Below the pieces are notes generated by a model. It had not been told where the DNA came from. It made no database searches and saw only the letters and a program-made list of their open reading frames with translations. A program made the position numbers and the translations under genes. Of a DNA stretch of 64,000 bases, positions 43,276-64,000 are shown one piece after another. The stretch's first letter is position 1, and each line of letters begins with the position of its first letter. Source of the stretch: Candidatus Saccharimonadales bacterium (lineage in GTDB: Bacteria; Patescibacteriota; Saccharimonadia; Saccharimonadales; JBGSXW01); the NCBI GenBank assembly GCA_041751215.1, contig JBGSXW010000005.1, positions 67,664 to 131,663 on the forward strand, written 5' to 3'.

Positions 43276-43420
43276 GGTTGTTAATTGCCCCTCGATATAA
43301 GTTTATCTAAGTTTTTTGCGTCTATGCCTACATTCTATCCTATACTTTTGTTTCGTACGCGGCTTAAATCTTTCCATATGCCCGGACTCGAATGTTAAAC
43401 TAACATCAAGAAGCACTAGC

Positions 43421-46991: not shown

Positions 46992-47248
<257 letters not shown>

Positions 47249-48689: not shown

Positions 48690-48723
48690 TTCTAAGTGTG
48701 AAGCTAAAGTGGAGGTAGGTTTT

Positions 48724-49185: not shown

Positions 49186-49205
49186 CACAAACACGTGTTC
49201 AAATG

Positions 49206-49240
49206 AAAAAGCTCCGGGAAACCGGGGCTTTTTCTTTTTG
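49206..49240 (+). terminator. rho-independent terminator of hsp20
   Basis: AGCTCCGG-GAAA-CCGGGGCT hairpin followed by TTTTTCTTTTT. Confidence 0.75.
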
Positions 49241-49703
49241 TCGCTTACCAGCGAGAGGAATTTCCACTTTTTATAAAGTGGCGCAAAACTCTTCACGCAG
49301 TTACCAAAATTGGCTTCTTTGTCGCTATCGCGACGGAGTAATGACGCCTTTTTCAAAAAGGTGTCCCAAAACTCTCCCGCTGCTGTAAAAACACCCATGA
49401 GCCTACTTCATTCAAAACTCGGGCGGCTGCGGAGTTCGTCCGCCAGTTGGGCGGACAGTCCTCGCCGCTCCGGGCCTTGGCTTCGCAAACTCAGAGGTTT
49501 TTACAGAGGCGGGGAGAAATACCGAACATTAACCCTAGTTTTGGCTAATTCTTTTCAGTGATGAAGCACAAGGAAGATACGAGTAGCGGAGCTCAGCTGT
49601 ACATGGAGGGTACTGCTGGCGAGCAACGGAGCATCTAACGATGAGCAGCCAGTGCTCCGCCGGATGGTGGAGGCAGGGCTGCGGTGATTCGTGCTGAAAA
49701 GAG
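49241..49703 (+). repeat. intergenic modular repeat, copy C (full length), between hsp20 and the pilin array
   Basis: Two palindrome submodules (CCACTTTTTATAAAGTGG, GCCTTTTTCAAAAAGGTG), each followed by CAAAACTCT.C.CGC.G. Then TTCAAAACTCGGGCGGCTGCGGAGT...GGACAGTCCTCGCC...GCAAACTCAGAGGTTTTTACAGAGGCGG. The distal module is homologous to 29721-29886. Confidence 0.8.
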
Positions 49704-50105
49704 TTAGCCCTGGAGAGAGGTGAGGACGAAGTTGACTAATGCGTAAGCTAGGAACGAAATAACAATACCAACGATTGCATAAAGAATGGTGTTTTTAGCA
49801 CCCTGGACGGCATTCTGATCACCAGCGGATACGACATAGCGAATTCCACCAATGATTAACATGATCACGGAGATAGCACCGACTACGAAGAGCATAGTGT
49901 TAACGACAGTTTCAAAAATGCTGTTGTCACCAAACAGGTTCTCTTGTGTTGGATCAGGTACGGCACAGTTAAGGCCGCCTTCAATTCCGCCGGCTGCGGT
50001 TTCACAGTTACTTTGTGCTGCCACGCTTCCGACTGACACTAAAGCAGTGGTTGCCCCGGTAGCTGAGGTTATTGCTAGTTGTTTTACTTTTTGATTAATG
50101 GACAT
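49704..50105 (-). CDS. T4SS pilin-like protein (VirB2/TrbC-type), paralog 1
   Basis: 133 aa. Signal-like N-terminus, Cys pair SNCETAAGGIEGGLNC, two C-terminal hydrophobic helices around GGIRYVVSAGDQNAVQGAKNTILYAIVG. Confidence 0.75.
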   Translation of the reverse strand: MSINQKVKQLAITSATGATTALVSVGSVAAQSNCETAAGGIEGGLNCAVPDPTQENLFGDNSIFETVVNTMLFVVGAISVIMLIIGGIRYVVSAGDQNAVQGAKNTILYAIVGIVISFLAYALVNFVLTSLQG

Positions 50106-50180
50106 CTTAGCTCCTTAGAACTTCTTATGGGTTTTAGTATATATCACAGGACTTCATCGGTGCAACAAGCTAGTGGCCTT

Positions 50181-50573
50181 TTATAGTGAATTTATGACAA
50201 AATTCACCAGCGCGTAGGCCAAAAAGGCCACCACTACACCCACTATTGAGTACATGACGGTGTTTTTTGCACCCTGGACTGCATTTGCGTCTCCGCCCGA
50301 CACCGCGTAGCGAATGCCACCGATGATCAGCATAATGACTGATATGCCACCGATCACAAACAACATAACATTAATTATATTTGCAAATATGCTGTCGCTA
50401 CCAAAAAGAGGCGTACTGGCGTTTGTGTTGACGCAAGTATCAACTTTCCAGGTTCCACCGCTACCTCGACAGATCTCCGCTTCTGGTTGAGCAAAAACTT
50501 GGTCCACGGACAGCAAAGCTACTGTTAGAGTAGTGGCCGCAAGTGTTGCACGTTTAGTTAGTCGATTAGTCAT
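50181..50573 (-). CDS. T4SS pilin-like protein, paralog 2
   Basis: 130 aa. Signal-like N-terminus, Cys pair EICRGSGGTWKVDTC, GGIRYAVSGGDANAVQGAKNTVMYSIVG. Confidence 0.75.
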   Translation of the reverse strand: MTNRLTKRATLAATTLTVALLSVDQVFAQPEAEICRGSGGTWKVDTCVNTNASTPLFGSDSIFANIINVMLFVIGGISVIMLIIGGIRYAVSGGDANAVQGAKNTVMYSIVGVVVAFLAYALVNFVINSL

Positions 50574-50583
50574 TTAGGGTTCC

Positions 50584-51000
50584 TTAAATACTATTAATTA
50601 CAAAGTTAACCAGAGTATAGGCCGCGGCCGCGACGATAACGCCAATGACGGCATAGAGGATCGTATCTTTGGCTCCTTGCGTCGCTTGAGCATCTCCACT
50701 AGATAAAACGTAACGAATACCGCCAATCACAATCATTATTACTGATGCAGCACCGACTATGTAAATAAGTACATTTACGATATCAGTAATAACATCCCCG
50801 AGACTTGCAGCACCATCACCACCGGCATCCCTGACCGCATCCTCCGCCTCGCCCTTAAGCGAGTCGTCGACTTGTCCTGGCCCACCAAACGGATTAACTT
50901 GAGCTAGCACAGTGGGCGCTGCGAACAAAGCTAAAGCGCCGAAGTAAGCGGTAAAAATTATCAGGCTGCTAGCAGTAATCATTGATAGTCGTTTAATCAT
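50584..51000 (-). CDS. T4SS pilin-like protein, paralog 3
   Basis: 138 aa. Signal-like N-terminus, no Cys, GGIRYVLSSGDAQATQGAKDTILYAVIG. Confidence 0.75.
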   Translation of the reverse strand: MIKRLSMITASSLIIFTAYFGALALFAAPTVLAQVNPFGGPGQVDDSLKGEAEDAVRDAGGDGAASLGDVITDIVNVLIYIVGAASVIMIVIGGIRYVLSSGDAQATQGAKDTILYAVIGVIVAAAAYTLVNFVINSI

Positions 51001-51002
51001 TA

Positions 51003-51428
51003 TTAGATCCTTTCTAGTACAAACAGTACCAAGCTCTGGGAGACTATAGCAATAGCTACCCCAATTAGCGCATACATGATTGTATCTTTAGCACTCTTAG
51101 TTGACTGCGGGTCTCCACCAGACAAAACATACTTGAGGCCACCGATAACTATAACTACTGTCGATATGGCCGCTATAACATACACTAAGGCTTGAGTAAT
51201 ATTAGTAATGACTCCGTCTGGGCCAACTAGCGGATTGCCTCCGTCGGCTTGGGCTGCCGCATTTTCTTTACAGACAGCTGGCAGGTTGTCTGGATCGGCA
51301 GTCTCGCAGGCTGGATCTATGACATCTACAGCTAGGACATCGCTTGTACTAACTGCGAATGAAACCACAGTCAGGCTTGTTAATATTAGTGTTAGTAAGA
51401 GTAGTTTTCTATACATTGTCGAATACAA
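51003..51428 (-). CDS. T4SS pilin-like protein, paralog 4
   Basis: 141 aa. Signal-like N-terminus, Cys pair PACETADPDNLPAVC, GGLKYVLSGGDPQSTKSAKDTIMYALIG. Confidence 0.75.
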   Translation of the reverse strand: MYSTMYRKLLLLTLILTSLTVVSFAVSTSDVLAVDVIDPACETADPDNLPAVCKENAAAQADGGNPLVGPDGVITNITQALVYVIAAISTVVIVIGGLKYVLSGGDPQSTKSAKDTIMYALIGVAIAIVSQSLVLFVLERI

Positions 51429-51723
51429 ATCCCACTATCGTAAAGGCCATAAGTGCCAAAACTAAACCGATAATTGCATACAGTATGGTGTCTTTAGCGC
51501 TTTGAATGCCGCCAGGATCACCCGAGGACGTTACATATTTTAGAGCGCCAATTACTACAAACAATAGGCTTAGCCCGCCGATAACCCCAAAAACAATCTG
51601 TAGAATTGTCTGAACCGCTGACTGGTCGGCAGAGATCATTGGAATTGGCACCTCATCGCCGGTAAATTTGTTAACCTCGTCTTGTATTGCCTGCGCAAAA
51701 CGTATGATTGTGGCGTAAAACAT
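51409..51723 (-). CDS. T4SS pilin-like protein, paralog 5
   Basis: Start probably at Met 51723, 1 nt after the upstream stop (track start 51759). No classical signal peptide and no Cys. GALKYVTSSGDPGGIQSAKDTILYAIIG. Confidence 0.7.
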   Translation of the reverse strand: MFYATIIRFAQAIQDEVNKFTGDEVPIPMISADQSAVQTILQIVFGVIGGLSLLFVVIGALKYVTSSGDPGGIQSAKDTILYAIIGLVLALMAFTIVGFVFDNV

Positions 51724-51724
51724 A

Positions 51725-52096
51725 TTAATTAAACTGTCCTGCAATAAATGATACGACAAGCGTTGCCATTATGGCGACAATCAGACCAATAATAGCGTTG
51801 GTAATAGTATCTCTTGCAGCTTTAATACCATCTGGGCTGCCCTGGCTAGTAACCATTTTAATAGAACCCCAAATTATAAAACCGACAGCAAATAGCGCAC
51901 CGAGTCTAGTTAATATCTCAATAAGGGCTGCCAAGATGAGCCAGATGTCATTAATATTGTTAATCGCTGGTATGCAGGTGTCGCCGAGTTCTAGATACTC
52001 GTACCAGGCCGGAAAATCTAAGACGTTTCCGCCGGAGCCACGACATTCCGCACCGGTTTTTCCAAACTGAGTCACTATATTAGTAGGATCTATCAT
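51725..52096 (-). CDS. T4SS pilin-like protein, paralog 6
   Basis: Start probably at Met 52096, in a TAATG overlap with paralog 7 (track start 52180). Cys pair AECRGSGG...GDTC. GSIKMVTSQGSPDGIKAARDTITNAIIG. Confidence 0.7.
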   Translation of the reverse strand: MIDPTNIVTQFGKTGAECRGSGGNVLDFPAWYEYLELGDTCIPAINNINDIWLILAALIEILTRLGALFAVGFIIWGSIKMVTSQGSPDGIKAARDTITNAIIGLIVAIMATLVVSFIAGQFN

Positions 52097-52584
52097 TATC
52101 CAAATATCCCTCCTGGAACCAACCATTGCAAGAATGCAAACATAAATATGTAGGCAAGTAGCGCAATAACAACGTTCCAAATATGATCTTTGGCGGCGCT
52201 GACTTGTTGTGGGTTGTCCTGCGCCATTATGTATTGTATGCCACTTAAAACTAAAGCAAAAACAATAATTATTCCGATTCCGGCCGCTAGAAATCTACTT
52301 ATGCCCCCGATATAGGCCAGAATTGGGTTGTCATTGTCTGTGCAATTTACATCGACACTTAGCTTAACGTCAGAGGTGCCGCAGTCTGCGCCGTCACGAT
52401 CTATCGGTATACCGCCAAGCTCGCTGTCTTCTGGACTAATAGGGTCGGCCGGAACAGTTGGGTCGGTCTGAGCACTAACAGGTGGGTTGAAATAACTGTC
52501 TGTGACGGTTGCCCCTCCAATACCTATTAATAGCATCGCTAGAAAAAGAGTCTTTGTTAAAATTTTAGTCTGTTTTAATATCAT
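52096..52584 (-). CDS. T4SS pilin-like protein, paralog 7 (most divergent, first in operon)
   Basis: 162 aa. Signal peptide, Pro-rich linker, Cys pair DCGTSDVKLSVDVNC, SGIQYIMAQDNPQQVSAAKDHIWNVVIA. Confidence 0.65.
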   Translation of the reverse strand: MILKQTKILTKTLFLAMLLIGIGGATVTDSYFNPPVSAQTDPTVPADPISPEDSELGGIPIDRDGADCGTSDVKLSVDVNCTDNDNPILAYIGGISRFLAAGIGIIIVFALVLSGIQYIMAQDNPQQVSAAKDHIWNVVIALLAYIFMFAFLQWLVPGGIFG

Positions 52585-52663
52585 ATGGATCTAGATTACC
52601 ACATAAACGCCTCTGTCACTTGAACCCGCGCTTATGCTAAAATAACGAGAAGTGGCAACTGAT

Positions 52664-55600
52664 ATGAAACTACAAAAGATCAAAAAATACCTGCTAGTGC
52701 CGATTGCGGCTATTGTAGTGTCCCAGCTGGCCCTGTCTGCAATCGCACAGGTCGTACCAGACACCTACGATGACGACAACACTACTTACGGCAATGCTGT
52801 TGATGTAGCAAACTTCAAGTTTGATAGGCCCCAACTATACGTTGAGGTGATTCGTAACGACTCAGAAACAGACTACACGTACAAAAAGGGTGCAGGATAC
52901 ACTACTAGGTACGACAACCGAATAATGACCTTCACCTCTGGTAGCAGTCGCCTCACTATGGATGTCTGCAAAATGACGCGAGCCTGGATTTCTAGCAACG
53001 ACGACGAAATATATCAGAAGCCAACTCGCTTTTTCTTCCCAGAGATATCTGATACGGCTGAAGTAAACTACAACCTGCAAGAAGGAAGAGAATGGGCTGA
53101 ATCTCACCAAGCTGCCCTGACTACCTACCATCGGCAGGTTCTTAGCAGTGCCGATATATACAATGAGCGCTGCTTAAACAACGACACTACATACAAAGAT
53201 CTAACTCCACTGCCCAATAGAAAGGTAGACATCAAAGTTGATCTTAATGGCGGAGACTCAGGAGATGGCGAAGATACTGTTATGGCCGAGCACGAACTTA
53301 GTGCTGAACTTCTTCTAGAAAATCTATATCTGTGTTTGTGGCGCGATGGACAAGAAGTTCTTATGTACGATCACAGCACTAGAGCGTGCGGAAAAATTTC
53401 TGGTGTTACGGTTCGCAACATCCTCGACGACGATGACAATACGCAAAAAAACGTATCTATATCTACTCCAGGAGCTCGAACTGGATCCTATGAAGTCTCC
53501 ATTTTAGGACTCGGCCGCACTCGGACCCAAGCGGAGTCCGTAAACTTTGGCAGTACTGGCGACGGCAACAGAAAACACTATGGTGCAGCAAAAGACGATG
53601 ATTTAGACATTGATTTTGCCCATGTATTAAGGGAGGCAAGAACCAGCCCGGACTCATTCCTGGAAAGGGTAGAGGAACACGAAGAAGCAGTTAGGCTAGC
53701 CAACCTTGAGGACGAACTCATAAACACTGGTGACGGTCCTACCGGTAGTCAGTCAGCCGATGTAATTGGCTGCGAAACTGGCTCAGGGCCGCTTGGCTGG
53801 ATTATCTGTCCCATCATCAACGGGCTCGTTAGTGCTGTAGACTGGGTCAGAATTTCAGTTATTGAACCTTCGCTTGAAGTTTCACCGCTTCAGACCGGTA
53901 CCAGCGACGCCACTTATTCAGTCTGGGTACAGATCCGAAACGTAGCCTTTGCCTTGTTGGTTCCGTTGTTTTTGGTAATGATTATGAGTCAGGCACTATC
54001 TTTTGAAGTCTTTGACGCATACACCGTTAAGAGAGCGCTGCCAAGGATTGTGGTGGCGACTATTGGTATTTCGCTTTCTTATTACTTCTGCGCCCTATTA
54101 ATAGACTTCTTCAATGTTCTTGGAGCCGGACTCGACAACCTTGTGCTAAATGCAGTTGCGCAGGCGGGTGGAATTACTATTACCGCCGATAGTATTGCGG
54201 CTAGTGGGTTTGTTAACGTTGCGGCGATTTTGGGCACGACCGGTACGATTTGGTATCTAACTTCCTCTATCGGCGCCTCTATTGGGCTGTTCATGCTAAT
54301 GGTGCTCCTGCCGCTTGTTCTGGGCGTTTTGACGGTATTTATAACTCTAGTCGCAAGGCAAGCGGTTATTTTGCTACTAGTTATGTTATCGCCCTTGGCA
54401 TTCTTGGCCTATATCTTTCCTAGTACTGAAGGGTACTTTAAAACTTGGTACAGCATTTTTTCTAAGACACTATTAATGTATCCGTTAATCATTCTTCTCT
54501 TGATGTCTGGAGGGTTGTTTGCAGCCATAATTACAACTGCTAGCAACAGTCCATTGGCGCAAATTACTGCCATTGTGGCGGTAGCCGCACCAATGTTCTT
54601 GATACCAGCAACATTTAAGATGGCGGGTGCGGCTATGGGGGCAGTGGGCGGAGCATTAACTGGTATGAGTGGGCGAATTAAGGCTCCTCTTACCGATCGA
54701 CGCAACCCCAACTCTGCCTACAACAAACTTAAGGGCAAGCAGCAAGTCGGTCAACAAAGACAGGCTATTAGGTTTATGCGCAATAACGTCAACAACAAGG
54801 GAATTAGAGGTCGAGCCGCCAAGACTATGGCTCGCTGGGGCCCTAACCTTGATATGGCCGAGGGCCGCTTTAACGAAGAGGCTGGCAAGCAGATTGAAGA
54901 TTTGGTTAATAACGGTAAGGACGGCTACGCCTATGCCCTGCTCGGCCTGGATCACGATCCTCGAAACGGCAAGCCGCTTGAAGCCGATGCCATTGAGTAC
55001 GCCAAGCGTAACCACGGCAATACTCACCTGACCCAGGCAGCTTTGTCCTATGCTATGCGTAAGGCCGGCGAAACTGGCCAACTAACCAAGGTCAAGGACG
55101 ATCTAATCGGTCTTGGTCACCGTGTAGGAATGCAGAATTCAGAAATCGATGGAGCTTGGATCGGCGCAGCCTTTAAGAACCAAATGACTCAAGGACAGCT
55201 TAAGCACCAGACTGCACGACCAGATCAAGAGGTTAACCAGATTCTACAGCGCCGTGCGGGTAGCGGACCATACGACTCAAGCTCTACTGGTGTCGCAGCC
55301 TACGGTGTGGGTAAGGCAGATGAGTTTGCTCAAGAAGCCCTGGAAACTAAGGGCTCGTACGCCTTTGCCCAACAGCGAGAGGGCTATTGGAAGGGTCTTG
55401 TAAACGCCGAGCAGCGCGTACAAATGCATAGAGACCTACTAGACTCTGGCGATGCTGAATATATGTCTAAGATGGGCATTAAAAGCGAGGCTGAGCGTAC
55501 TGCCGGCGTGGCATCCGCAGATTCAACTCTGGAGAAATTCACCACACTCAAAGACGGCTTGGCCAGCGAGCTTGCCAGCAGCCCAGGTGGTATTACTGGA

Positions 55601-55810
55601 ACAGCAGATGAAGATGGCATGATGTACACCAAGAGCGGCGCCCCAATTCTAGCCGGCGCGGCTATGCGTGACTTTGTTGGCACCGAGCGACTAGATGCAG
55701 CTCGCGGCAGCACTGGTCGCGGACCCAGAACCCCACCTGGCGGCACTCCACCGCCGACTCTGCCACCCGAACCACCAGCACCTGGCGCCCCTTACAGCTA
55801 CGGGAGTTAA
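52664..55810 (+). CDS. giant VirB6/TrbL-like polytopic T4SS membrane protein
   Basis: The ATG at 52664 gives a signal-like MKLQKIKKYLLVPIAAIVVSQLALSA (the track uses GTG at 52652). About 400-aa ectodomain, about 8 TM helices over residues 430-660, about 380-aa C-terminal soluble region ending in a Pro-rich tail PPGGTPPPTLPPEPPAPGAP. Confidence 0.65.
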   Translation: MKLQKIKKYLLVPIAAIVVSQLALSAIAQVVPDTYDDDNTTYGNAVDVANFKFDRPQLYVEVIRNDSETDYTYKKGAGYTTRYDNRIMTFTSGSSRLTMDVCKMTRAWISSNDDEIYQKPTRFFFPEISDTAEVNYNLQEGREWAESHQAALTTYHRQVLSSADIYNERCLNNDTTYKDLTPLPNRKVDIKVDLNGGDSGDGEDTVMAEHELSAELLLENLYLCLWRDGQEVLMYDHSTRACGKISGVTVRNILDDDDNTQKNVSISTPGARTGSYEVSILGLGRTRTQAESVNFGSTGDGNRKHYGAAKDDDLDIDFAHVLREARTSPDSFLERVEEHEEAVRLANLEDELINTGDGPTGSQSADVIGCETGSGPLGWIICPIINGLVSAVDWVRISVIEPSLEVSPLQTGTSDATYSVWVQIRNVAFALLVPLFLVMIMSQALSFEVFDAYTVKRALPRIVVATIGISLSYYFCALLIDFFNVLGAGLDNLVLNAVAQAGGITITADSIAASGFVNVAAILGTTGTIWYLTSSIGASIGLFMLMVLLPLVLGVLTVFITLVARQAVILLLVMLSPLAFLAYIFPSTEGYFKTWYSIFSKTLLMYPLIILLLMSGGLFAAIITTASNSPLAQITAIVAVAAPMFLIPATFKMAGAAMGAVGGALTGMSGRIKAPLTDRRNPNSAYNKLKGKQQVGQQRQAIRFMRNNVNNKGIRGRAAKTMARWGPNLDMAEGRFNEEAGKQIEDLVNNGKDGYAYALLGLDHDPRNGKPLEADAIEYAKRNHGNTHLTQAALSYAMRKAGETGQLTKVKDDLIGLGHRVGMQNSEIDGAWIGAAFKNQMTQGQLKHQTARPDQEVNQILQRRAGSGPYDSSSTGVAAYGVGKADEFAQEALETKGSYAFAQQREGYWKGLVNAEQRVQMHRDLLDSGDAEYMSKMGIKSEAERTAGVASADSTLEKFTTLKDGLASELASSPGGITGTADEDGMMYTKSGAPILAGAAMRDFVGTERLDAARGSTGRGPRTPPGGTPPPTLPPEPPAPGAPYSYGS

Positions 55811-55814
55811 CTAA

Positions 55815-56780
55815 ATGGCCGTCTATAAAGTACCGCAAAACGTTGAGGCCGAAGACAAGCTGATCGGGCCATTTACCTTTAAGCAGTTCATCTTTTTAAT
55901 TGCGGCGGCAATCTCTGGCTTTTTGACCTGGACGCTAGCTCAGCTTGCTTTGCCGCTAGCCTTAATTACTCTGCCCTTTACCTTAGCGTTTGGATTGCTC
56001 GGAGTTTATCACCGCGACGATCAGCCGGTAGAGGTCTACCTGCTCTCACTAATGAGATTCTATTTTAAGCCCCGCGTCAGGCTCTGGAGTCAGACTGGCA
56101 TGGTTAGCCTAGTTAAAGTCACGGCTCCAAAAGTAATTGAAAAGAACTATACCGATGGCCTTAGCCAAGGGGAAGTTAGGAACCGCCTGAAGTCTTTGGC
56201 TACTGTTATGGATACTCGTGGCTGGTCTTCGCGCAACGCTACACTTCAGGACGGGCAAACTCAAACAGTAGACGCTAGCGATCGCTTGGTCGTACCAAAC
56301 TACGGCACGTCAGAGCCAACCGATGTTCATCAATCCGATGATCCACTTTACGAATACGGCAGCCAGTACGAAAAGTTTAGTACTGGAATTGATCAAGCCA
56401 GCGCTCGAATTAAAGAAGAAGCCGTGGAACGAATGCATCAACAGCTCGCCCAACCAGTAACCCCGCCACCGGCCCCAGCAGCAGCGATGCCTCCAGTTAC
56501 CCCGCCACTTGCCGACCCTCAACCTGCAAGCCCACAGCCAACTGTCAGCTACAACCCTTACCCAAACAGCATGCATCAACGGGTGATTAATCCCGCTGGA
56601 TCTGGTCAATCTGCGCCGACCACTACTGCGTCAAAATCAACTTCAAACACAAGCACAATGACAGAGGCCAGCTCGCCTGATATACTGAGGCTAGCGCGGA
56701 ACAATGACCGCAATGTAGCGTCGATTCAGCGTGAGGCCGACAACGAACTTCACGACGATCAGACGATCTCTCTTCACTAG
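55815..56780 (+). CDS. PrgI/VirB3-like T4SS protein
   Basis: The N-terminus YKVPQNVEAEDKLIGPFTFKQFIFLIAAAISGF followed by two TM helices matches the PrgI-family pattern. The C-terminal half is Pro/Ser/Thr-rich. Confidence 0.6.
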   Translation: MAVYKVPQNVEAEDKLIGPFTFKQFIFLIAAAISGFLTWTLAQLALPLALITLPFTLAFGLLGVYHRDDQPVEVYLLSLMRFYFKPRVRLWSQTGMVSLVKVTAPKVIEKNYTDGLSQGEVRNRLKSLATVMDTRGWSSRNATLQDGQTQTVDASDRLVVPNYGTSEPTDVHQSDDPLYEYGSQYEKFSTGIDQASARIKEEAVERMHQQLAQPVTPPPAPAAAMPPVTPPLADPQPASPQPTVSYNPYPNSMHQRVINPAGSGQSAPTTTASKSTSNTSTMTEASSPDILRLARNNDRNVASIQREADNELHDDQTISLH

Positions 56781-56819
56781 GGGGCGCAGGGTAGTCAATA
56801 AACGCGGTAATTTTTTGTT

Positions 56820-57827: not shown

Positions 57828-59785
57828 TGGCTTTTGGAAAACGCAAACCGGACCCGGTTGATATTGCTCAGCAGCAGCGCCAGCGCGAGCAGATCGAAGT
57901 AGAGCAAGAATTCCGCAAGGGCGTAACCGCTCTACGCGATTTTATTGCGCCCAGCTCACTAGAATTTCAGTCTGGTTACTTCAGGGCTGGAACTAAGTAT
58001 GCTCGAACACTATACGTTTACGGCTACCCTCGGCAGCTTTATACCGGCTGGTTGTCGCCAATTATTAACATCGATGAGGTCATCGACATCTCGATGTTTA
58101 TCTATCCAGTTGAGAGCCAGGTTGTGCTAGAAAACTTAAAGAAAAAAGTCGGACAGCTAGAAGCCAGTCTTCAAATTAACGCCGAAAAGGGGCGAGTCCG
58201 CGACCCAGGCCTTGAAGCCGCTATTGGCGACGCCGAAGAGCTAAGAGATAAGCTTCAGATTGGTGAAGAAAGATTCTTTCGCTTTGGCTTTTACGTAACC
58301 ATCTACTCCGACTCGCTTGATGAACTAAACTTTGTTCAACATAAGATTGAGTCCATTCTTGGACAACAGTTGGTCTACTCTAAAGCCGCAACTGCCCAAA
58401 TGGAGCAAGGCTTTAACTCAACCTTGCCACAAATGGTTGACCAGTTAATGGTGCGGCGCAACATGAATACCGGTGCAATTTCGACTAGCTTTCCCTTTAC
58501 CTCTGCTGATCTGACCCAAGAAGAGGGCATTCTCTACGGCATTAACATGCACAACAACGGACTGGTCATCTTTGACCGCTTTAGTCTTGAAAACGCCAAT
58601 ATGGTGGTTTTTGCTAAGTCTGGTGCCGGTAAATCTTTTGCGGTTAAGCTCGAGGCCTTGCGCAGTTTGATGATGGGCGTCGAGGTTGTGGTTATTGACC
58701 CAGAAAACGAGTATCAACGCATGGCCGAGGCTGTTGGCGGTGCGTATGTGCGACTGTCGCTCAACTCGCAAACTCGAATTAATCCATTTGATCTACCTCA
58801 CGTTGTTGACCGCGAGGACGCCGATAACGCCTTGCGCGCTAACCTAATTACGTTGCACGGTTTGTTACGACTAATGATGGGCGGAGCTCAAGCACAGATG
58901 GTAGAAAGCGGCAACGGACCGGCTTTGATATCCCCGCTAACCCCTGTTGAAGAATCCGATCTCGACCAAGCTCTAATCGATACCTACGCCAAAGCCGGTA
59001 TTACAACTGATCCACTAACGCACAACTCTCCGCCACCAACCATTAACGATCTTTATGACACGCTTTTACACATGAGTGGTTCTGGTCCTCAGCTTGCCCA
59101 GCGCTTACGCAAATACACTAAGGGCACCTTTGCTGGCATTTTTAGTCAGCCTTCTAACGTTAATACCGACAACAACCTAGTGGTGTTTAACATCCGTGAC
59201 CTTGAGGACGAACTACGTCCGGTTGCCATGTATATTGTTCTTAATTACATCTGGAACAAAACTAAGGCCGATAAACGCAAGCGCATGCTAATCGTGGACG
59301 AAGCCTGGCAGCTCATGAAATACGAAGATTCAGCGCACTTTATGTTTAGTTTGGCTAAAAGGGCCAGAAAGTATTACCTAGGTCTTACCACTATCTCTCA
59401 GGACGTAGAAGACTTTATGAGTTCAAAGATGGGTCGAGCAGTTGTGGCTAACGCCTCTATGCAGTTGTTACTAAAACAGGCCCCATCGGCGGTTGATGTG
59501 TTGGCGCAAACCTTTAAGCTAACTTCAGAAGAACAAAAGCGATTGATAAACTTCCCCGTTGGCCAAGGTCTGCTATTTGCTGGACCAAACCACATTCATA
59601 TGCAGATCATTGCTTCTCCGACTGAAACCTCTTTGATCACTACCGACCCGGGTCAATTAAACGCCATCGCCCAGGCAGCCAAGTTAGATGAACTACAAAG
59701 AGACCTGATGCCTCAATCACCAATTCCGACACCCCAGCCACAGACTCCCGGACCCGCACCAGGAGCAGGAACAATTCCTAAATAA
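57827..59785 (+). CDS. virB4: VirB4-family T4SS ATPase
   Basis: 652 aa. FIAPSSLEFQSGYFRAGTKYARTLYVYGYPRQLYTGWLSPII, Walker A VVFAKSGAGKS, Walker B RMLIVDEAWQLM, LGLTTISQDVEDF. Confidence 0.88.
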   Translation: MAFGKRKPDPVDIAQQQRQREQIEVEQEFRKGVTALRDFIAPSSLEFQSGYFRAGTKYARTLYVYGYPRQLYTGWLSPIINIDEVIDISMFIYPVESQVVLENLKKKVGQLEASLQINAEKGRVRDPGLEAAIGDAEELRDKLQIGEERFFRFGFYVTIYSDSLDELNFVQHKIESILGQQLVYSKAATAQMEQGFNSTLPQMVDQLMVRRNMNTGAISTSFPFTSADLTQEEGILYGINMHNNGLVIFDRFSLENANMVVFAKSGAGKSFAVKLEALRSLMMGVEVVVIDPENEYQRMAEAVGGAYVRLSLNSQTRINPFDLPHVVDREDADNALRANLITLHGLLRLMMGGAQAQMVESGNGPALISPLTPVEESDLDQALIDTYAKAGITTDPLTHNSPPPTINDLYDTLLHMSGSGPQLAQRLRKYTKGTFAGIFSQPSNVNTDNNLVVFNIRDLEDELRPVAMYIVLNYIWNKTKADKRKRMLIVDEAWQLMKYEDSAHFMFSLAKRARKYYLGLTTISQDVEDFMSSKMGRAVVANASMQLLLKQAPSAVDVLAQTFKLTSEEQKRLINFPVGQGLLFAGPNHIHMQIIASPTETSLITTDPGQLNAIAQAAKLDELQRDLMPQSPIPTPQPQTPGPAPGAGTIPK

Positions 59786-59793
59786 ATGTCGCT

Positions 59794-62772
59794 ATGACCG
59801 AAGAATTAAACAAACTAGAGAACCAAGACTACACACCGGGTGCCGAGTCGGGTACTGACGACGGCTCAAATACCAAGCCAGAACCAAATGACCAAGATGG
59901 CGCCAACAAGCCAAACAGACTTGAACGGATAAAAATCAAAGCCAAGGCTAATCGTCGAAAAATACTAATTTCGGGCGGAGCTGGTATAGGTATCCTCGGT
60001 GGCGGCATGTTTATGGGCTCGATTTTGCAAGGACCGTTTCAGTTTATTCAGATTGGTCAGTTTGCCCAGGGCAATCTTGAGCCTAATGAAGTCATGGTCG
60101 ACTCGCGCTTGAGTCAGGGCTACCGCTTTAACAGAGCCATAAACAATATCGATAACTCCCACCTGTACCGCCTGGGCTGGACCGGCCGAAAGTTGTGGGG
60201 TGAAAACGGCCGCGCCACCCAATATCTGGCTAATCGCGGCATCCGACCAGTTTACGAAAACAGTGTTTTGGTTGATCTGGTTGACCCTAACGGGCAGTCT
60301 ATTCGCCGCGGCGATCAGACCTTTAGGGATATTGAGTCTGGCGACACCGCAGCCTCAAGACGCACCGCAAACCTGCAGCGGCGAAACTTTGTTCGGTCGG
60401 TGGCCTGGCAGAACGGCGGAGTAAGCAAGGCGGCCATTGCCATTGGGTCACGTTCGTTCTTTAAAGTTAGCGGTATTGATTTGCGCCCTTTAGGAAACTT
60501 TAAGTACGATAGAAGTAAGTCGTTTTTTGAGAACCTACAATTAAAAAATGAACAAGAGAATGCTGCGGCCAGGGGAGAGACTAGCCCCTTAGACTTTACC
60601 GGTGCTGAACCAGACCCAGACGCCGACGGCAACGGAGATGTTACGCAAGCCGAGTCCGATGCTGCTGATGCAGCAAAGGCTCAAGCCGATGCCCAGGCGG
60701 ACCAAGTTAAAAACATCGACGTAGACGAGATCAGAAATGCCCCCAATACCAACGCCAACAACTCACCATCGGCAACGCTCAAAGGAAAGCTTAGAGCCGG
60801 CGCTGGGGTTGGCCTAGCCGTAAGTGTAGCTTGTTTAGCCCGCGAACTTTCTAGCGCCAGTGACGAAGCCCAGCATGCCCAAGCTTATATGGTACTGATG
60901 CGAATAGCCGGCAGGTTCATGGCCATCGGTTCGCAGATCCAGGCAGGCGAGGCTGGACCGGATATGCTGGATGAACTTGGTCTGCTCGCAACCCACTTAT
61001 ATGACAAGGAAAGCGGCCTAGACTGGTCGGCAGCTAAGAGTGTAGGGGCAGTTGAAGGTAAGTCAGAAGCAGAGCTCGAAAACCGGCCAGATATGTTTGC
61101 CAGTGGACAAGTAGGAACCAAGGCGGCACAAAATGATCTTAAAAAGTCTTTGGACTCCATCGGCAGTTTTACTCCAGGACCAATCTGCAGCGCCTTTAAC
61201 AGCACGGCAGCTCAAGTGGCCTTTGCGTTGGTAGATCCGGTCGGTGAGGCGGCAGAAGCAGCAATAATGCACGTGCTAACCGAACTCTTTTTAGACGATG
61301 TCCTGAGAATGATATCTGGTGAGCCAGTTGATTTTAGCTCGTTGTTTGGCCCAGATACCGGAAACGCGATAACTCACGGTGGGTTCTTTTTAGGACGAGA
61401 GACTAGACGTCAACTAGCAGGCACTGAGATAACGCCAGCTCAAAGTACGCAGTGGCGACGATTCATAGCTGAACAGAATGAACTCGATGCTAAGGAAAAA
61501 GGTTTTGGTTACCGTTACTTTGCGATTGATAATCCCAAATCTTTGGTTAGCAGCTTTGCCCGGTCATTCCCGACCTCCCTCAAGCAAGTAGCCAGCTCAC
61601 TCGGCGATGTCACCAACAACTTTAAGTCGGTCTTTGGCTGGGCTAGTGCTCCGTTTGCACGCGTTAACGCCATAGACACCGATAACTACGACTTTGGTGT
61701 TCCCGACATCGGGATCCCCCTTGATACTTTGTTTGATGAAACCTATGAGAACCCGTACCAGAACACCGACCTTCTTCACCAGCAAATTCAGCAAAATCCA
61801 AACTTCGACGACATCAACGACCTGCACGAGGAGTTTGCAAAAGAGTGCTTTAACATGGATATCACCGAAGGTTCTGGCGAGAACCCCTCGCTAACAATTG
61901 TGCCAATGACCGGACTAGATGACGGCGGAACACCGTACTACGAAATGACCAATAAATGTAATCGAAACGATGTTTTCTTTAATCGTTACCGCTTTTACGT
62001 GCTCGATCTGATGGCCAATGAATCTATGAACTGCTACTTAGGTGACGCCAACTCTTGTGAGGTACTAGGGATAAACTCAGCGCCATCGAACTCTGGTGGA
62101 GATTCTACCAACACCCCTTCGTACTTGAGCTGTCCGGATCTCAGCACTACCTTAAGTGTGCAGGGTTTTAAATATTATCTTTTACCCGACCTGCCAGACG
62201 GCATTAACGTAAGAGGTGGGTCGAACCCTGATGACTACAGCTACGGAGTCCGCGAAATCGTCTGTGCAGTTAACACAGTGGCTGAAAAGTTTAGAGATAA
62301 GTACGGCGCTGGCGCCTACACTCAAACTATGGACCTTAACGGGTCTGGGCACTGGTACCACGCCAACGGAACTGATGTTGATACCTACGCTTTCTTGGCC
62401 AACGGCCAGTCGGCGGCTACCAATGTTAGCGCGCAAAGCCAAGAGGCCACAATCGAACTAGGAAAGATGTGGATTGATACCGGCTTAGTCGATACGATAA
62501 TCTGGTGCGATCCGGGCTCAACGCCTCAGCCCACTGGCGATATGTCCAACCAAACCATTGGTAATGGACCTGCCATGGACGCGTTACGCGAGTATGGGCG
62601 CGGCAAGGGTAAGAACACCACTGGTGATGTTTTGGTATTTTGTTGGTCCAGCCACTATGACCACTTCCACATTAGAATTGACCGCAGCTTAAAGGGGCCG
62701 TGCCACATGCCTCTGCCGCCAAGAGTGGGAACCTCGGCTAAAAACTGTGATAACTATGTGGAGAGTAGTTAG
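59794..62772 (+). CDS. membrane-anchored T4SS-associated protein with C-terminal LAS/M15-like zinc-peptidase motif
   Basis: 992 aa. N-terminal TM ILISGGAGIGILGGGMFMGSIL. C-terminal WYHANGTDVD (HxxGxDxD, compare SxHxxGxAxD) and SSHYDHFHI (DxxH) about 100 residues apart. Confidence 0.55.
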   Translation: MTEELNKLENQDYTPGAESGTDDGSNTKPEPNDQDGANKPNRLERIKIKAKANRRKILISGGAGIGILGGGMFMGSILQGPFQFIQIGQFAQGNLEPNEVMVDSRLSQGYRFNRAINNIDNSHLYRLGWTGRKLWGENGRATQYLANRGIRPVYENSVLVDLVDPNGQSIRRGDQTFRDIESGDTAASRRTANLQRRNFVRSVAWQNGGVSKAAIAIGSRSFFKVSGIDLRPLGNFKYDRSKSFFENLQLKNEQENAAARGETSPLDFTGAEPDPDADGNGDVTQAESDAADAAKAQADAQADQVKNIDVDEIRNAPNTNANNSPSATLKGKLRAGAGVGLAVSVACLARELSSASDEAQHAQAYMVLMRIAGRFMAIGSQIQAGEAGPDMLDELGLLATHLYDKESGLDWSAAKSVGAVEGKSEAELENRPDMFASGQVGTKAAQNDLKKSLDSIGSFTPGPICSAFNSTAAQVAFALVDPVGEAAEAAIMHVLTELFLDDVLRMISGEPVDFSSLFGPDTGNAITHGGFFLGRETRRQLAGTEITPAQSTQWRRFIAEQNELDAKEKGFGYRYFAIDNPKSLVSSFARSFPTSLKQVASSLGDVTNNFKSVFGWASAPFARVNAIDTDNYDFGVPDIGIPLDTLFDETYENPYQNTDLLHQQIQQNPNFDDINDLHEEFAKECFNMDITEGSGENPSLTIVPMTGLDDGGTPYYEMTNKCNRNDVFFNRYRFYVLDLMANESMNCYLGDANSCEVLGINSAPSNSGGDSTNTPSYLSCPDLSTTLSVQGFKYYLLPDLPDGINVRGGSNPDDYSYGVREIVCAVNTVAEKFRDKYGAGAYTQTMDLNGSGHWYHANGTDVDTYAFLANGQSAATNVSAQSQEATIELGKMWIDTGLVDTIIWCDPGSTPQPTGDMSNQTIGNGPAMDALREYGRGKGKNTTGDVLVFCWSSHYDHFHIRIDRSLKGPCHMPLPPRVGTSAKNCDNYVESS

Positions 62773-62774
62773 CT

Positions 62775-64000
62775 ATGCGCAAGCTCGTTGTTGCTCTTCT
62801 AGCCCTAATGATCTTCTCGATTGCCGGGCAGAGCTTAGTTTTGGCTCAAGAAACAGAAGAAACCCCCGCCGCTGACCCTGAGGAGAGCGGCCTATCTCCA
62901 GAACAAAGACAGCTACTTAACTATGGGGTCTATTATTACGACCCGAATGACATTTGCTCGACTTCAAGCCAAGGAACAGAAGGAACCATCGCACCCGGCG
63001 CAACCCCCGGACCGGTGGTGCTAATTGGAGATTCACTCAGCGACCCTAACTGGCCCGGCACAGCCAACGCAAAACTTCAACAACAGTTCTCAGCTGGCGG
63101 TTGGTCGCTAACTATTGATTCAGTTGCTGGACGACGCGCCTCACAAGCTGTTCCAAGAATTAACGCAAACTCGGCTCAAATCGCAGCTGCTAACGCCGTG
63201 GTCGTACAGCTAGGTTCAAACCCGGACACCGGTAATTTTGGTAATCAAATAAACCCAATCATTAATGCCATCAAAAGCATCAATGAAGAGGCCCGGATTT
63301 TTTGGGTTGATGTCGGCTCCAACACCAATGGCACCGGCAAGGACGGAACTTCACTTGCGGGCATCCTAGACGTAGATGCGCAAACTCCAGCAGCTTATAG
63401 CGCTATTAACGAAAAGATTCATACACTTTCAACCACCAATAACTACACAGTTATCCCGTGGTTTAAAACTGTCTTCCCAGACGGGGACCCCAAGGCAATC
63501 AACGCTAGTTGGGTTGATTCAAATAACTATCTCGACAATGACAAGCTCCACTTAAGTCCCGAGGGCAGCACCAGGTTTGCAACTTTAATTGGTGACTACG
63601 TTAAAGGGGGAGGTGGACAATCGGTTCCAACATCAAACGCCAGCGTAGACCCACAAGCCCTGCAGATATTCCAGGATGAACTTCTGCCACTGATCACGCC
63701 GTTGGTGCCACTTTACCAACAAGCTGCCCAGGAAGAGGGTCTCTTAGACTGGCAGTTGTTGCCGGCCCTACATAACTTAGAGTTTGGACTTAGGCGCGAT
63801 AACCCAACCACCAACCTCGGCTTTAAGTCTCCATTTCAGATGTCTCAAACTGGACTTAGTGCGGGAGGTGTCGATACTAGTGCCGAAATATTTGCTCCAG
63901 GTAGGGTGCTGAGCGATGAAGAATTCGTTACCGTAGCTCGTTACGCAATTCGTTTTTACCTAAAACCGAACGGGGATCATCTTGGCATAGACCTTTCTGG
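62775..64000 (+). CDS. secreted SGNH/GDSL hydrolase fused to a lysozyme/lytic-transglycosylase-like segment (3' end outside window)
   Basis: Not in ORF track because it runs off the edge. The ATG lies 2 nt after the previous stop. Signal peptide MRKLVVALLALMIFSIAGQSLVLAQ. SGNH block I VLIGDSLS, block III LGSNPD, block V DKLHLSPEG. Later LEFGLRRDNP...SPFQMSQ. The frame stays open to position 64000. Confidence 0.7.
   Translation, partial: MRKLVVALLALMIFSIAGQSLVLAQETEETPAADPEESGLSPEQRQLLNYGVYYYDPNDICSTSSQGTEGTIAPGATPGPVVLIGDSLSDPNWPGTANAKLQQQFSAGGWSLTIDSVAGRRASQAVPRINANSAQIAAANAVVVQLGSNPDTGNFGNQINPIINAIKSINEEARIFWVDVGSNTNGTGKDGTSLAGILDVDAQTPAAYSAINEKIHTLSTTNNYTVIPWFKTVFPDGDPKAINASWVDSNNYLDNDKLHLSPEGSTRFATLIGDYVKGGGGQSVPTSNASVDPQALQIFQDELLPLITPLVPLYQQAAQEEGLLDWQLLPALHNLEFGLRRDNPTTNLGFKSPFQMSQTGLSAGGVDTSAEIFAPGRVLSDEEFVTVARYAIRFYLKPNGDHLGIDLS

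Follow-up and report, generated by a model that had tools for sequence, protein, structure and literature searches.

A resident type IV secretion locus of Saccharimonadales with a probable non-conjugative role in host contact

Results

A stretch of 64,000 nucleotides of DNA from a Saccharimonadales bacterium (the window) was analyzed, with emphasis on positions 49704-64000. [quoted passage not shown] We assign a probability of roughly 0.78 to this reading, which covers the identity of the system and its non-conjugative host-contact role, the cargo being excluded. The locus type is already known and the window adds one more orthologue rather than a system of a new type, because a gene-for-gene match to the SEML1 locus, its essentiality in Tn-seq experiments and a phylum-wide survey have all been published. 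An earlier note on this DNA, made from the sequence alone, had called the architecture unknown. This was overstated, as the locus type, which is essential in S. epibionticum, has been described (PMC10633639, PMC12102498, PMC7427843).

Gene organization and genomic context

The coordinates of all open reading frames between 49704 and 64000 were confirmed by an ORF check. Seven genes for VirB2-like pilins occupy the minus strand. The divergent plus-strand genes encode a VirB6-like protein, a PrgI/VirB3 protein, a TrsD-like protein, VirB4, an anchored protein of 992 amino acids and a secreted SGNH protein. The divergent layout described in the earlier note, around 52585-52663, was confirmed; the spacer itself lies at 52585..52651. 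This intergenic spacer of 67 bp separates the pilin array from the VirB6-to-hydrolase operon, and a consensus promoter scan of it gave no signal above chance. The pilin array and the hsp20 gene, which are convergent, are separated by a G+C-rich hairpin with T-runs (49205..49234; a 13-pair stem followed by TTTTT). It probably terminates transcription from both sides and marks the left end of the locus. On the other side, an identical public contig adds 6.7 kb of sequence past the end of the window, in which the cluster gives way to recF-dnaN-dnaA-rpmH-rnpA; recF-dnaN-dnaA starts 6.3 kb after VirB4. The cluster, flanked by hsp20/comFC on one side and recF-dnaN-dnaA on the other, sits at the replication origin. 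The housekeeping flanks include polA, dnaG, rpoD, argS, valS, groEL and tsaD. The GC content was uniform (0.447-0.511 within the locus, 0.443-0.522 elsewhere), in agreement with the earlier statement that the composition resembles that of the housekeeping flanks (hsp20, comFC, tRNAs). Genes for tRNA-Ser and a repeat of a tRNA 3'-end were observed 2 kb to the left of the locus.

A family scan of the proteins encoded in the 14-kb locus, in the following 6.7 kb and by 30 ORFs further upstream revealed no relaxase, coupling protein (T4CP) or integrase. No VirB11 was detected in or near the cluster, and VirB4 was its sole P-loop ATPase; the stretch inspected comprised the 64 kb of the window plus the 6.7 kb. 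An att-like repeat joining both flanks was not found, the flanks sharing zero 14-mers. The earlier claim that the 14 kb lack a relaxase, a VirD4-type ATPase, an integrase and att-like boundaries was thereby confirmed. Its non-conjugative reading had been made to depend on the sequence past position 64000, and the 6.7 kb available there likewise carry no relaxase, T4CP or integrase.

The pilin array

The minus-strand proteins were compared with the Pfam family T4SS_pilin (PF18895, gathering score 26.6 bits). Six of the seven scored above this threshold, with 35.0-45.4 bits. Pilin 1 (49704..50105, 133 aa, 35.3 bits) is the most distal one and is followed by pilin 2 (50181..50573, 130 aa, 35.0 bits) and pilin 3 (50584..51000, 138 aa, 45.4 bits). 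The latter also matched the NF045849 model of Mycoplasma-ICE pilin-like proteins with 30.3 bits, below its cutoff. Pilin 4 (51003..51428, 141 aa) exceeded the gathering scores of both T4SS_pilin (43.1 bits) and TrbC/VirB2 (32.8 bits). The shortest protein, pilin 5 (51409..51759, 116 aa, 44.2 bits), has a positional orthologue in relatives. Pilin 6 (51725..52180, 41.0 bits) comprises 151 aa as the longest ORF, which overlaps the pilin 7 gene by 85 nt. Its true start is uncertain; an alternative in-frame ATG at 52096 would reduce the overlap to one base of the pilin 7 stop codon. The divergent pilin-like protein 7 (52096..52584, 162 aa), encoded beside the spacer, reached 21.9 bits with T4SS_pilin and 30.9 bits with NF045849 (cutoff 40), both below threshold, yet a positional orthologue was present beside VirB6 in 46 related loci. 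The count of seven pilin-like genes given before consequently holds at profile level for six of them. The order pil5-pil6-pil7 beside VirB6 is conserved in relatives.

Identity to pilin 1 ranged from 18 to 54% over the full length, and pairs of pilins shared 18-74% over the helical hairpin. From one end of the array to the other, identity decreases in steps, starting at 74% and reaching 21%. Pilins 1 and 2 share 74% identity over the hairpin, and pilin 1 appears to be the most recently duplicated member. Relatives carry 5 to 9 copies. An AF2 model of pilin 1 (pLDDT 63) consisted of a signal helix and a hairpin (63-92/97-132). A pilin fold search was uninformative.

The membrane core and the VirB4 ATPase

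The first plus-strand gene (52652..55810) encodes an extended VirB6-like polytopic protein of 1052 aa, tentatively assigned by its transmembrane (TM) topology and position. It is composed of an N-terminal exported domain with a hydrophobic segment, a TM core at aa ~380-655 with at least six TM segments (aa 381-653) and a hydrophilic C-terminal domain of ~400 aa. Conservation is limited to the TM core (31%). Topology and position fit the earlier assignment to VirB6/TrbL, which profile searches recovered weakly. The whole protein matched Pfam TrbL with an E value of 0.061, below the gathering score, and 8 of 22 orthologue cores matched TrbL (best E 1.3e-5). Six homologues carry a precomputed PF19590 match. 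A sequence profile search against the PDB gave no match. An AF2 model of the core, which is of low confidence (pLDDT 53), retrieved the stalk chains TrwJ/VirB5-TrwI/VirB6 of R388 as the top four PDB entries in Foldseek, with probabilities of 0.96-0.99.

The adjacent plus-strand gene (55815..56780) encodes a PrgI/VirB3-like membrane protein of 321 aa, as noted before, which matched PF12666 at aa 5-90 with 57.5 bits (cutoff 27). It contains 2-3 TM segments at aa 16-62 and a Pro/Gln-rich tail.

The next two plus-strand genes had been described as a VirB4 in two ORFs. This description is apt because the 335-aa ORF (56820..57827) corresponds to positions 11-119 of the NCBIfam model conju_CD1110 (E 6.6e-8) and the 652-aa ORF (57827..59785) to positions 174-732. 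Both parts of the model were recovered; the reading was corrected to a conserved pair of TrsD and VirB4 genes instead of a broken gene. The stop codon of the TrsD-like gene overlaps the start of virB4 by one base (TAATG), and the TrsD-like protein is encoded by its own ORF adjoining virB4 in 74-78 relatives. It matched NF041427 with 29.7 bits (E 5.2e-7), far below the cutoff of 200, and carries a precomputed match to PF26593 (TraC-like). Judged by its sequence, it is presumably the counterpart of the N-terminal piece of monoderm VirB4.

VirB4 itself scored 362.7 bits with conju_CD1110 (cutoff 325) and 86.5 bits with P-loop_TraG, and matched Thermoanaerobacter VirB4 (PDB 4AG5) with an E value of 1.6e-50. 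The Walker A motif KSGAGKS (aa 264, nt 58616-58636) and the Walker B motif LIVDEAW (aa 488, nt 59288-59308), both pointed out in the earlier note, are conserved in 79 of 80 and 77 of 80 relatives, respectively. These matches assign the protein to the predicted monoderm (MPF-FATA-related) type of VirB4. The partial match to the CedB model (E 4.6e-15) amounted to 55.3 bits, far below the cutoff of 700; membership in the archaeal Ced system was rejected, the likeness being compositional only. VirB4, PrgI and six pilins were thus recovered by profile searches above curated thresholds, while TrsD and VirB6 remained below them. With VirB4, a separate TrsD-like piece, PrgI/VirB3 and an extended VirB6-like protein, the core is of the monoderm (MPF-FATA-like) kind.

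The scaffold and hydrolase block

Downstream of virB4 an anchored protein of 992 aa is encoded (59794..62772, plus strand), in which aa 1-~780 represent a conserved family and the C-terminal ~210 aa a putative, divergent LAS-type zinc-peptidase module. The anchor segment and zinc-peptidase motif reported earlier were located. A hydrophobic TM-like segment lies at aa 57-75 (KD 1.58), and the C-terminus contains the motifs HxxGxxxD (H856..D863) and HxH (H957xH959). The C-terminus alone matched Peptidase_M74 with an E value of 0.005, below the gathering score. The C-terminal part of the family profile matched VanY/LdcB structures (E 1e-14), and VanY matches with E <= 0.001 were obtained for 14 of 47 positional orthologues.

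Homologues of the N-terminal ~80% of this scaffold occurred in 53 of 54 loci, and the window protein's own C-terminus was present in 4 of the 54. In 51 of 53 loci the scaffold gene is the first large gene after virB4; a short ORF precedes it in the other two. The family comprised 735 relatives among 1.84 billion representatives. Its C-terminal modules include LAS, M23, CHAP and GDSL domains, and Exo_endo_phos or GDPD in some species. The protein after VirB4 is a conserved scaffold of ~780 aa with swapped C-terminal enzymes.

The following plus-strand gene (62775..64000) runs past the end of the window. It encodes a secreted multi-domain hydrolase with a signal peptide, an SGNH/GDSL domain, a middle domain and a C-terminal LAS peptidase, which lies beyond the window. 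The full-length protein comprises 667 aa (L001, 8920-10923) and contains a GDSL motif at aa 85, HELGRAID at 584 and HIH at 660. It matched Lipase_GDSL_2 with 27.4 bits, below the cutoff of 32.9. The earlier designation as an SGNH/lysozyme-like protein stood for the signal peptide and the GDSL motif; the supposedly lysozyme-like middle part gave no profile match in an isolated-domain search, and the LAS domain had not been part of that description. Compared with the L061 orthologue, identity was 45% in the LAS and 27% in the SGNH domain, and the middle domain was unalignable.

In all 54 loci the block between virB4 and recF contained a large ORF, a mid-sized one and one or two small ones, all on the plus strand. 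The modules found in it were VanY, M23, CHAP, GDSL, phage-tail lysozyme, SLT, amidase, glucosaminidase and NlpC/P60. The entire block constitutes a polymorphic toolbox of predicted cell-wall hydrolases.

Conservation and relation to known systems

The gene order comFC-hsp20-pilins-VirB6-PrgI-TrsD-VirB4-[variable block]-recF-dnaN-dnaA recurs in ~40 Saccharimonadales genomes; a synteny comparison had been proposed in the earlier note. VirB4 relatives were found in at least 575 species-level genomes, the best 80 of which are nearly all labelled Saccharimonadales or Saccharibacteria. The nearest relatives (72-81% identity) all belong to such genomes, in line with the proposal of an episymbiotic ultrasmall bacterium. 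Together with the CD1110-type VirB4, the conserved synteny in ~40 species also upheld the description as a chromosomally fixed, Gram-positive-style minimal T4SS. VirB4 evolves slowly (median identity 76% over 80 loci). The pilins (36-45%) as well as the outer VirB6 domains and the hydrolases (~26-29% or undetectable) evolve fast. This contrast between a conserved ATPase core and fast pilins, outer VirB6 domains and modular hydrolases indicates which components make contact with the host.

The closest studied counterpart is that of S. epibionticum ML1, whose SEML1_0003-0021 region the window locus matches gene for gene. The T4SS genes of ML1 were essential by Tn-seq (Wang 2023, PMC10633639), essentiality having been shown for ML1 only. 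SEML1_0006-0019 (PMC10633639) agrees with the present locus in surroundings and gene order, which runs from dnaA, dnaN, recF, small exported proteins and a lysozyme/peptidase protein through the scaffold position, VirB4, the TrsD position, PrgI, the VirB6-like protein and the pilins to hsp20, comFC and tRNA-Ser. At the scaffold position ML1 has a protein of ~1100 aa ending in a Hedgehog/DD-peptidase (LAS) fold, and at the TrsD position a protein of ~290 aa which is unannotated in Wang's tables and a TrsD according to PMC12102498. The ML1 cluster likewise lacks a relaxase and a coupling protein; the coupling protein of ML1 is encoded far from the cluster and is non-essential (PMC12102498). The genome studied here may also encode one at another site. 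ML1 differs in having two VirB6-like genes (999 and 1089 aa) around a non-essential NTF2-like gene where the window has one (1052 aa), the single gene being the state in most close relatives of the window locus. ML1 has six pilins and the window seven. The mid-sized protein of ML1 combines two lysozyme domains with a cysteine protease, whereas that of the window combines SGNH, middle and LAS domains.

The T4SSs of Patescibacteria in the phylum-wide survey (Quinonero-Coronel 2025, PMC12102498) and the TM7x region (McLean 2020, PMC7427843) share with the window VirB4, TrsD, PrgI/VirB3 and VirB6, arrays of 2-11 VirB2-like pilins with comF/gntX nearby, and a chromosomal position, often near dnaA/dnaN, without a relaxase. 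There is no essential difference between them and the window locus. What our analysis adds to these two studies is the scaffold with swapped C-terminal enzymes and the hydrolase toolbox present systematically in the VirB4-recF interval.

Monoderm MPF-FATA systems (CTn2 CD1110, pGO1 Trs, pCF10 Prg and the Mycoplasma ICE Mbov_0395-0397) have in common with the window the CD1110-family VirB4, a TrsD-like protein, PrgI and multi-domain wall hydrolases that are anchored in the membrane and can be likened to PrgK or CwlT. The pilin-like model of the Mycoplasma ICE resembles the window's pilin-like protein. In contrast to these systems, the window locus is non-mobile, without relaxase, T4CP, oriT-processing or integration genes, and it possesses an array of VirB2-like pilins which is missing from classical Gram-positive systems.

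The archaeal Ced/Ted systems for DNA import and Helicobacter pylori ComB are the two known importers. Like the window locus, they combine a VirB4-type sole ATPase with a VirB6-like channel protein and VirB2-like pilins, lack a relaxase and a coupling protein, and serve chromosomal housekeeping uses. ComB has diderm VirB7-10 parts, unlike the window locus.

Discussion

The reading we prefer is that of a pilus or conduit to the host that breaches walls and does not serve conjugation. PrgI would hold VirB4 at the membrane, and VirB4 and TrsD would pull Sec-inserted pilins out at the VirB6 platform. The extracted pilins would polymerize into a pilus or tube, and the anchored scaffold and the secreted hydrolases (LAS peptidases, SGNH esterase) would open a way through the walls of both symbiont and host. 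The outcome would be a contact-dependent conduit at the interface of episymbiont and host, and not a conjugation machine. The role of the T4SS has been called "completely unknown" even in cultured relatives (PMC11665869). As to the direction of transport, VirB4 as sole ATPase with VirB6 and VirB2 and without a coupling protein is the composition of the two known importers, and we therefore lean, tentatively and at somewhat less than even odds, to the uptake of host macromolecules over effector export or adhesion only. Against import stand the dispensability of comEC in ML1 and the lack of a DNA-handling protein in the cluster.

The system may instead export effectors or other proteins, the hydrolases among them, into or onto the host so as to co-opt or damage it, comparable to diderm effector T4SSs, the killing T4SS of Xanthomonas or Bordetella Ptl. 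Export is what most T4SSs do, and the combination of a conserved scaffold body with swapped C-terminal enzymes is an architecture typical of polymorphic effectors. The downstream proteins carry Sec signals or anchors, and a coupling protein would therefore not be needed, as with Ptl. Protein delivery was also suggested by Wang 2023 (PMC10633639) and in a 2024 perspective (PMC11665869). We nevertheless regard export as possible rather than likely. The 64 kb plus 6.7 kb contain neither a coupling ATPase nor VirB11, recognizable effector-immunity pairs were not seen, and every enzymatic module found degrades the wall or envelope, which equally fits the channel-opening hydrolases of Gram-positive conjugation.

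An adhesion pilus that fastens the symbiont to its host, assembled by VirB4, VirB6 and PrgI from VirB2-type pilins without any translocation, is less probable still. VirB4, VirB3, VirB6 and VirB2 do form a pilus assembly set, and coupling proteins are required for substrate transfer, not for T4SS pilus assembly. Paralogous pilins would widen the host range, consistent with seven diversifying copies (74% to 21% identity along the array) and a number of 5 to 9 among relatives. However, the conserved battery of wall hydrolases and the extended VirB6 with its large cytoplasmic domain exceed the needs of adhesion, and type IV pili already serve adhesion and motility in Saccharibacteria (PMC12206443).

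For TM7x an analogy to Bordetella ptx/ptl was drawn from the layout, 4-6 signal-peptide proteins being arrayed beside T4SS genes (McLean 2020, PMC7427843). That reading, in which the T4SS would export the small minus-strand products as toxin-like subunits secreted via Sec, is very improbable here: six of seven exceed the T4SS_pilin threshold and one also that of TrbC/VirB2, the model consists of a VirB2-type signal helix and a hydrophobic helical hairpin, and the similarity to pertussis toxin S1 was just 11% (PMC7427843). Finally, ICEs of Firmicutes and Mycoplasma typically carry a VirB4 of this family (CD1110, Mbov_0397), and 2 kb to the left there are tRNA-Ser genes and a repeat of a tRNA 3'-end, but an ordinary or decayed ICE can practically be dismissed given the lack of relaxase, T4CP and integrase in the locus, the next 6.7 kb and 30 ORFs upstream, the uniform GC content and flanks without shared repeats, the same dnaA-adjacent position in ~40 species with 72-81% VirB4 identity, and the essentiality of the orthologue in ML1.

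Within the favoured reading of a conduit to the host, the scaffold might be the working part of the machine, presenting interchangeable C-terminal "warheads" from a membrane anchor. Alongside the secreted hydrolases, which are equally polymorphic, and the growing set of pilin paralogues, it would set which host walls can be breached, and thereby act as a host-range determinant of a conduit feeding on host macromolecules. We put this forward as a rather doubtful, speculative extension.

Few machines are known to be indispensable to Patescibacteria living as epibionts, and this system is one of them; the group makes up a huge and mostly uncultured share of bacterial diversity. The locus described here provides a point of comparison.

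Gene Content of the T4SS Locus

The ORF map of the T4SS locus (49704–64000) agreed with the divergent layout described in an earlier note on this DNA. Seven small ORFs were read directly on the minus strand within 49704–52584, and a 67-bp spacer (52585–52651) separates them from the plus-strand genes. The latter encode a VirB6-like protein of 1052 aa (52652–55810), a PrgI/VirB3 protein of 321 aa (55815–56780), a TrsD-like protein of 335 aa (56820–57827), a VirB4 of 652 aa (57827–59785), an anchored protein of 992 aa, here called the scaffold (59794–62772), and a secreted protein of 667 aa which starts at 62775 and runs past the window end. The plus-strand junctions are tight (4, 39, −1, 8, and 2 nt), and the 335-aa and 652-aa ORFs share one base between stop and start codon (TAATG), which fits a single plus-strand operon. 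A consensus promoter scan gave fewer sites than in shuffled sequences, and the divergent spacer yielded nothing usable. The GC content of the locus (0.447–0.511) falls inside the range of the remaining window (0.443–0.522), in line with the earlier claim that its base composition resembles that of the flanks.

The 321-aa protein was identified as PrgI/VirB3 with 57.5 bits. The 652-aa protein reached 362.7 bits on the CD1110 conjugative-ATPase family (curated cutoff 325) and matched the solved VirB4 of Thermoanaerobacter (4AG5) with an E-value of 1.6e-50; its Walker A and Walker B motifs were found where the earlier note had placed them. On the CD1110 VirB4 model the 335-aa protein covers positions 11–119 and the 652-aa protein positions 174–732, and the former also aligns with the TrsD family. 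The description as a two-ORF VirB4 was fair, since both ORFs cover parts of one VirB4 model and the arrangement is the TrsD plus VirB4 pair known from pGO1-type and Patescibacteria systems (PMC12102498). BLASTP of TrsD against VirB4 of the window revealed no paralogy, and their relation is seen only via family models. A frameshifted or broken VirB4 is ruled out because TrsD is a separate ORF in 74–78 related loci.

Among the core proteins the 1052-aa protein has the weakest family assignment. Its own TrbL/VirB6 match has an E-value of 0.061; TrbL was matched by 8 of 22 orthologue cores (best E-value 1.3e-5), and PF19590 is a precomputed match on relatives. Searching the PDB with a VirB6-core sequence profile gave no match. 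The four best PDB matches of a low-confidence core model built on a shallow alignment (pLDDT 53) were R388 TrwJ/VirB5-TrwI/VirB6 stalk chains (probability 0.96–0.99, identity 20–22%). On the basis of at least six TM segments and its operon position, the protein was accepted as an extended VirB6-like protein. With TM-rich or fast-evolving queries, word-indexed protein searches recovered just 2, 4, and 6 relatives.

The Pilin Array

Six of the seven small proteins, numbered from the distal end towards the spacer, exceeded the Pfam T4SS_pilin threshold. Pilin 7 (52096–52584), next to the spacer, scored 21.9 bits, below the cutoff of 26.6 bits. All seven exhibit the VirB2 layout with two hydrophobic helices toward the C-terminus, and most carry an N-terminal hydrophobic segment. 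The AF2 model of pilin 1, of modest confidence (shallow alignment, pLDDT 63), consists of a signal helix followed by a helical hairpin. A Foldseek search with this model yielded no significant match, which is uninformative because a helical hairpin is nondiscriminating.

The hairpin identity of neighbouring pilins drops from 74% (pilins 1 and 2) to 21% (pilins 6 and 7). Across relatives the three pilin genes closest to VirB6 hold their position, and the number of distal pilins varies. Together these features suggest that successive tandem duplications extended the array at its distal end.

The longest ORFs at 51409–52584 overlap by 20 nt (pilins 4 and 5), 35 nt (5 and 6), and 85 nt (6 and 7); therefore, some pilin starts are probably internal to them. 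Pilin 6 also has an in-frame ATG at 52096, which shares one base with the pilin 7 stop; a start at this site would leave pilin 6 without its hydrophobic N-terminus. Pilin 5 shows no obvious signal peptide. No convincing ORF occupies the 470 nt that separate the terminator hairpin of hsp20 from the pilin array (49235–49703), a long gap for such a compact genome; no pilin remnant was found in it. The array is flanked by comFC (47773–48432) and hsp20 (48709–49185), likewise in 22 and 35 related loci and in Candidatus Southlakia epibionticum, where hsp20 was rated essential and comFC nonessential (Wang 2023, PMC10633639).

The Scaffold and Hydrolase Block

In iterative HMM searches the N-terminal ~80% of the scaffold was homologous in 53 of 54 loci, and the C-terminal ~20% recurred in just four of the 54. 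The scaffold belongs to no Pfam family; a search of 1.84 billion representative proteins gave 735 relatives at E ≤ 0.001. Its family profile matches solved VanY/LdcB LAS peptidases (E-value 1e-14), and the C-terminus of the window's protein carries an HxxGxxxD...HxH motif with a sub-threshold M74 match. The C-terminal modules of 47 positional orthologues comprise VanY/M15 (14/47), M23 (5), Exo_endo_phos (3), and GDSL (3), as well as CHAP, GDPD, and M14. In individually checked orthologues they begin past approximately residue 820. Two of the module types, Exo_endo_phos (3/47) and GDPD (1/47), are not peptidoglycan enzymes; orthologues of this kind are located, for example, at three related loci (L049, 8666–12478; L023, 11930–15598; L029, 11917–15465). 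Their presence hints that nucleic acid, lipid, or teichoic acid of the host may be attacked in addition to murein.

Genes two and three of the block also carry predicted wall-hydrolase domains. The 114 proteins contained phage-tail lysozyme (30), GDSL (12), amidase (10), C39-like (9), PEGA (9), SLT (at most 9), M23 (8), and glucosaminidase (5) domains, besides CHAP and NlpC/P60. Judged by this predicted domain content, the genes between VirB4 and recF are a hydrolase toolbox. The 667-aa protein combines an SGNH domain, a middle domain, and a C-terminal LAS peptidase. Of its earlier description as SGNH/lysozyme-like, the SGNH part was recovered, but the lysozyme-like part is unsupported, as the middle domain gave no Pfam match and no alignment to the SLT domain of the orthologue on contig L061.

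Chromosomal Context and Distribution

A public 16.9-kb contig (L001) encodes a protein identical to the 992-aa one; this contig matches 53856–64000 of the window at 100% identity and extends 6.7 kb further. Downstream it encodes the complete 667-aa protein and a 428-aa anchored protein, followed on the opposite strand by recF, dnaN, an 84-aa ORF without matches, dnaA, a 40-aa ORF at the rpmH position, and rnpA. The T4SS cluster thereby adjoins the origin set recF-dnaN-dnaA-rpmH-rnpA (L001 10928–16849, corresponding to 64783–70704 beyond the window). Its last gene product, the 428-aa protein, is N-terminally anchored, matches no family, and has homologues in just 2-3 of 54 loci.

With each species represented by one genome, at least 575 genomes were found to encode a VirB4 relative. 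The best 80 relatives (72–81% identity) are nearly all labelled Saccharimonadales or Saccharibacteria. About 40 sufficiently long loci share the order comFC, hsp20, five to nine pilins, VirB6-like, PrgI, TrsD, VirB4, a variable block of 4.6–8.5 kb, recF, dnaN, dnaA. From this shared order, the locus is a vertically inherited chromosomal fixture next to the replication origin; that it is fixed in the chromosome had been proposed in the sequence-only reading. The median identity to relatives is 76% for VirB4, 56% for TrsD, 36–45% for the pilins, 35% for PrgI, and 31% for the VirB6-like protein, where it is confined to the TM core. The downstream proteins have median identities of ~26–29% or are undetectable by tblastn.

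Scans of the locus, of the 6.7 kb downstream, and of 30 ORFs in the 49 kb leftward revealed no relaxase, coupling ATPase, or integrase; the leftward ORFs include polA, dnaG, rpoD, argS, valS, groEL, a Mur ligase, tsaD, pgi, and transporters. No 14-mer is common to both flanks as an att repeat. The absence of DNA-processing genes, first noted up to position 64000, thus holds as far as recF-dnaN-dnaA-rpmH-rnpA. An ordinary integrative conjugative element, the alternative set against the original reading, is rejected on these grounds and on the uniform GC content and conserved synteny.

Eight sizeable ORFs upstream of the locus gave no Pfam match at the thresholds used (11234–11923, 27787–29370, 31938–32750, 35884–36882, 36937–37845, 43316–44506, 45043–45591, 46139–46666). 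Two copies of a 167-nt element, 99.4% identical, lie on the minus strand (46992–47158 and 47464–47630) directly 3' of tRNA-Ser(tga) (47159–47248) and tRNA-Ser(gct) (47631–47723). Each copy terminates in 19 nt that duplicate the tRNA-Ser 3' end (AATCCCTCCCTCTCCGCCA); this exact 19-mer ends three of the window's four tRNA-Ser genes, and the fourth (47159) differs by one base. The element forms a strong fold (−83 kcal/mol, z = −5.0), belongs to no Rfam family, and has no exact match in viral or metagenome collections. It could be an attL/attR-like scar left by a tiny integrative element, or else a structured RNA linked to the tRNAs.

Relation to Described Systems and Possible Function

In TM7x a region with VirB4, VirB6, PrgI, a series of small proteins with signal peptides, and a gntX/comFC gene was described and found across Saccharibacteria (McLean 2020, PMC7427843). 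In S. epibionticum ML1 the genes SEML1_0006–0019 were annotated by structure, and Tn-seq scored all of them as essential except the NTF2-like gene 0012 (Wang 2023, PMC10633639). The ML1 order is dnaA, dnaN, recF, two small exported proteins, a lysozyme/cysteine-protease, an 1114-aa protein with a terminal Hedgehog/DD-peptidase fold, VirB4, a ~290-aa protein, PrgI, VirB6-like, NTF2-like, VirB6-like, six pilins, hsp20, comFC, tRNA-Ser (PMC10633639), and the gene order of the window matches it. A phylum survey reported VirB4, TrsD, PrgI, VirB6, and VirB2 arrays of 2–11 genes near dnaA, with relaxases being rare, and proposed a role other than conjugation, perhaps import (Quinonero-Coronel 2025, PMC12102498). 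A T4SS review from 2025 and a perspective from 2024 (PMC11665869) give the same account and term the role unknown. Consequently, the locus belongs to a system that has been described before and is not new, and the overall inference of the earlier note is, with minor corrections, correct and agrees with the published view of these T4SSs.

According to established T4SS biology, VirB4, tethered via VirB3/PrgI, would pull membrane-inserted VirB2 pilins out at the VirB6 platform to form a pilus, and the anchored and secreted hydrolases would open the peptidoglycan. PrgK- and CwlT-type enzymes do so in Gram-positive conjugation. All exposed parts evolve rapidly, as would fit contact between them and diverse host envelopes.

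The two known importers, archaeal Ced/Ted and H. pylori ComB, use VirB4 as the sole ATPase and lack a coupling protein. The window system is alike in its sole VirB4 ATPase and in having no coupling protein nearby. Moreover, Saccharibacteria are unable to make nucleotides. In ML1 comEC is dispensable and the T4SS is not (PMC12102498; PMC11665869). For these reasons, and by analogy only, we tentatively prefer uptake, at a probability of roughly 0.4. Export by the same apparatus appears somewhat less likely, and adhesion alone is improbable. The window does not make the function of the Patescibacteria T4SS newly testable. The scaffold and its hydrolase modules are candidates for host-range experiments.
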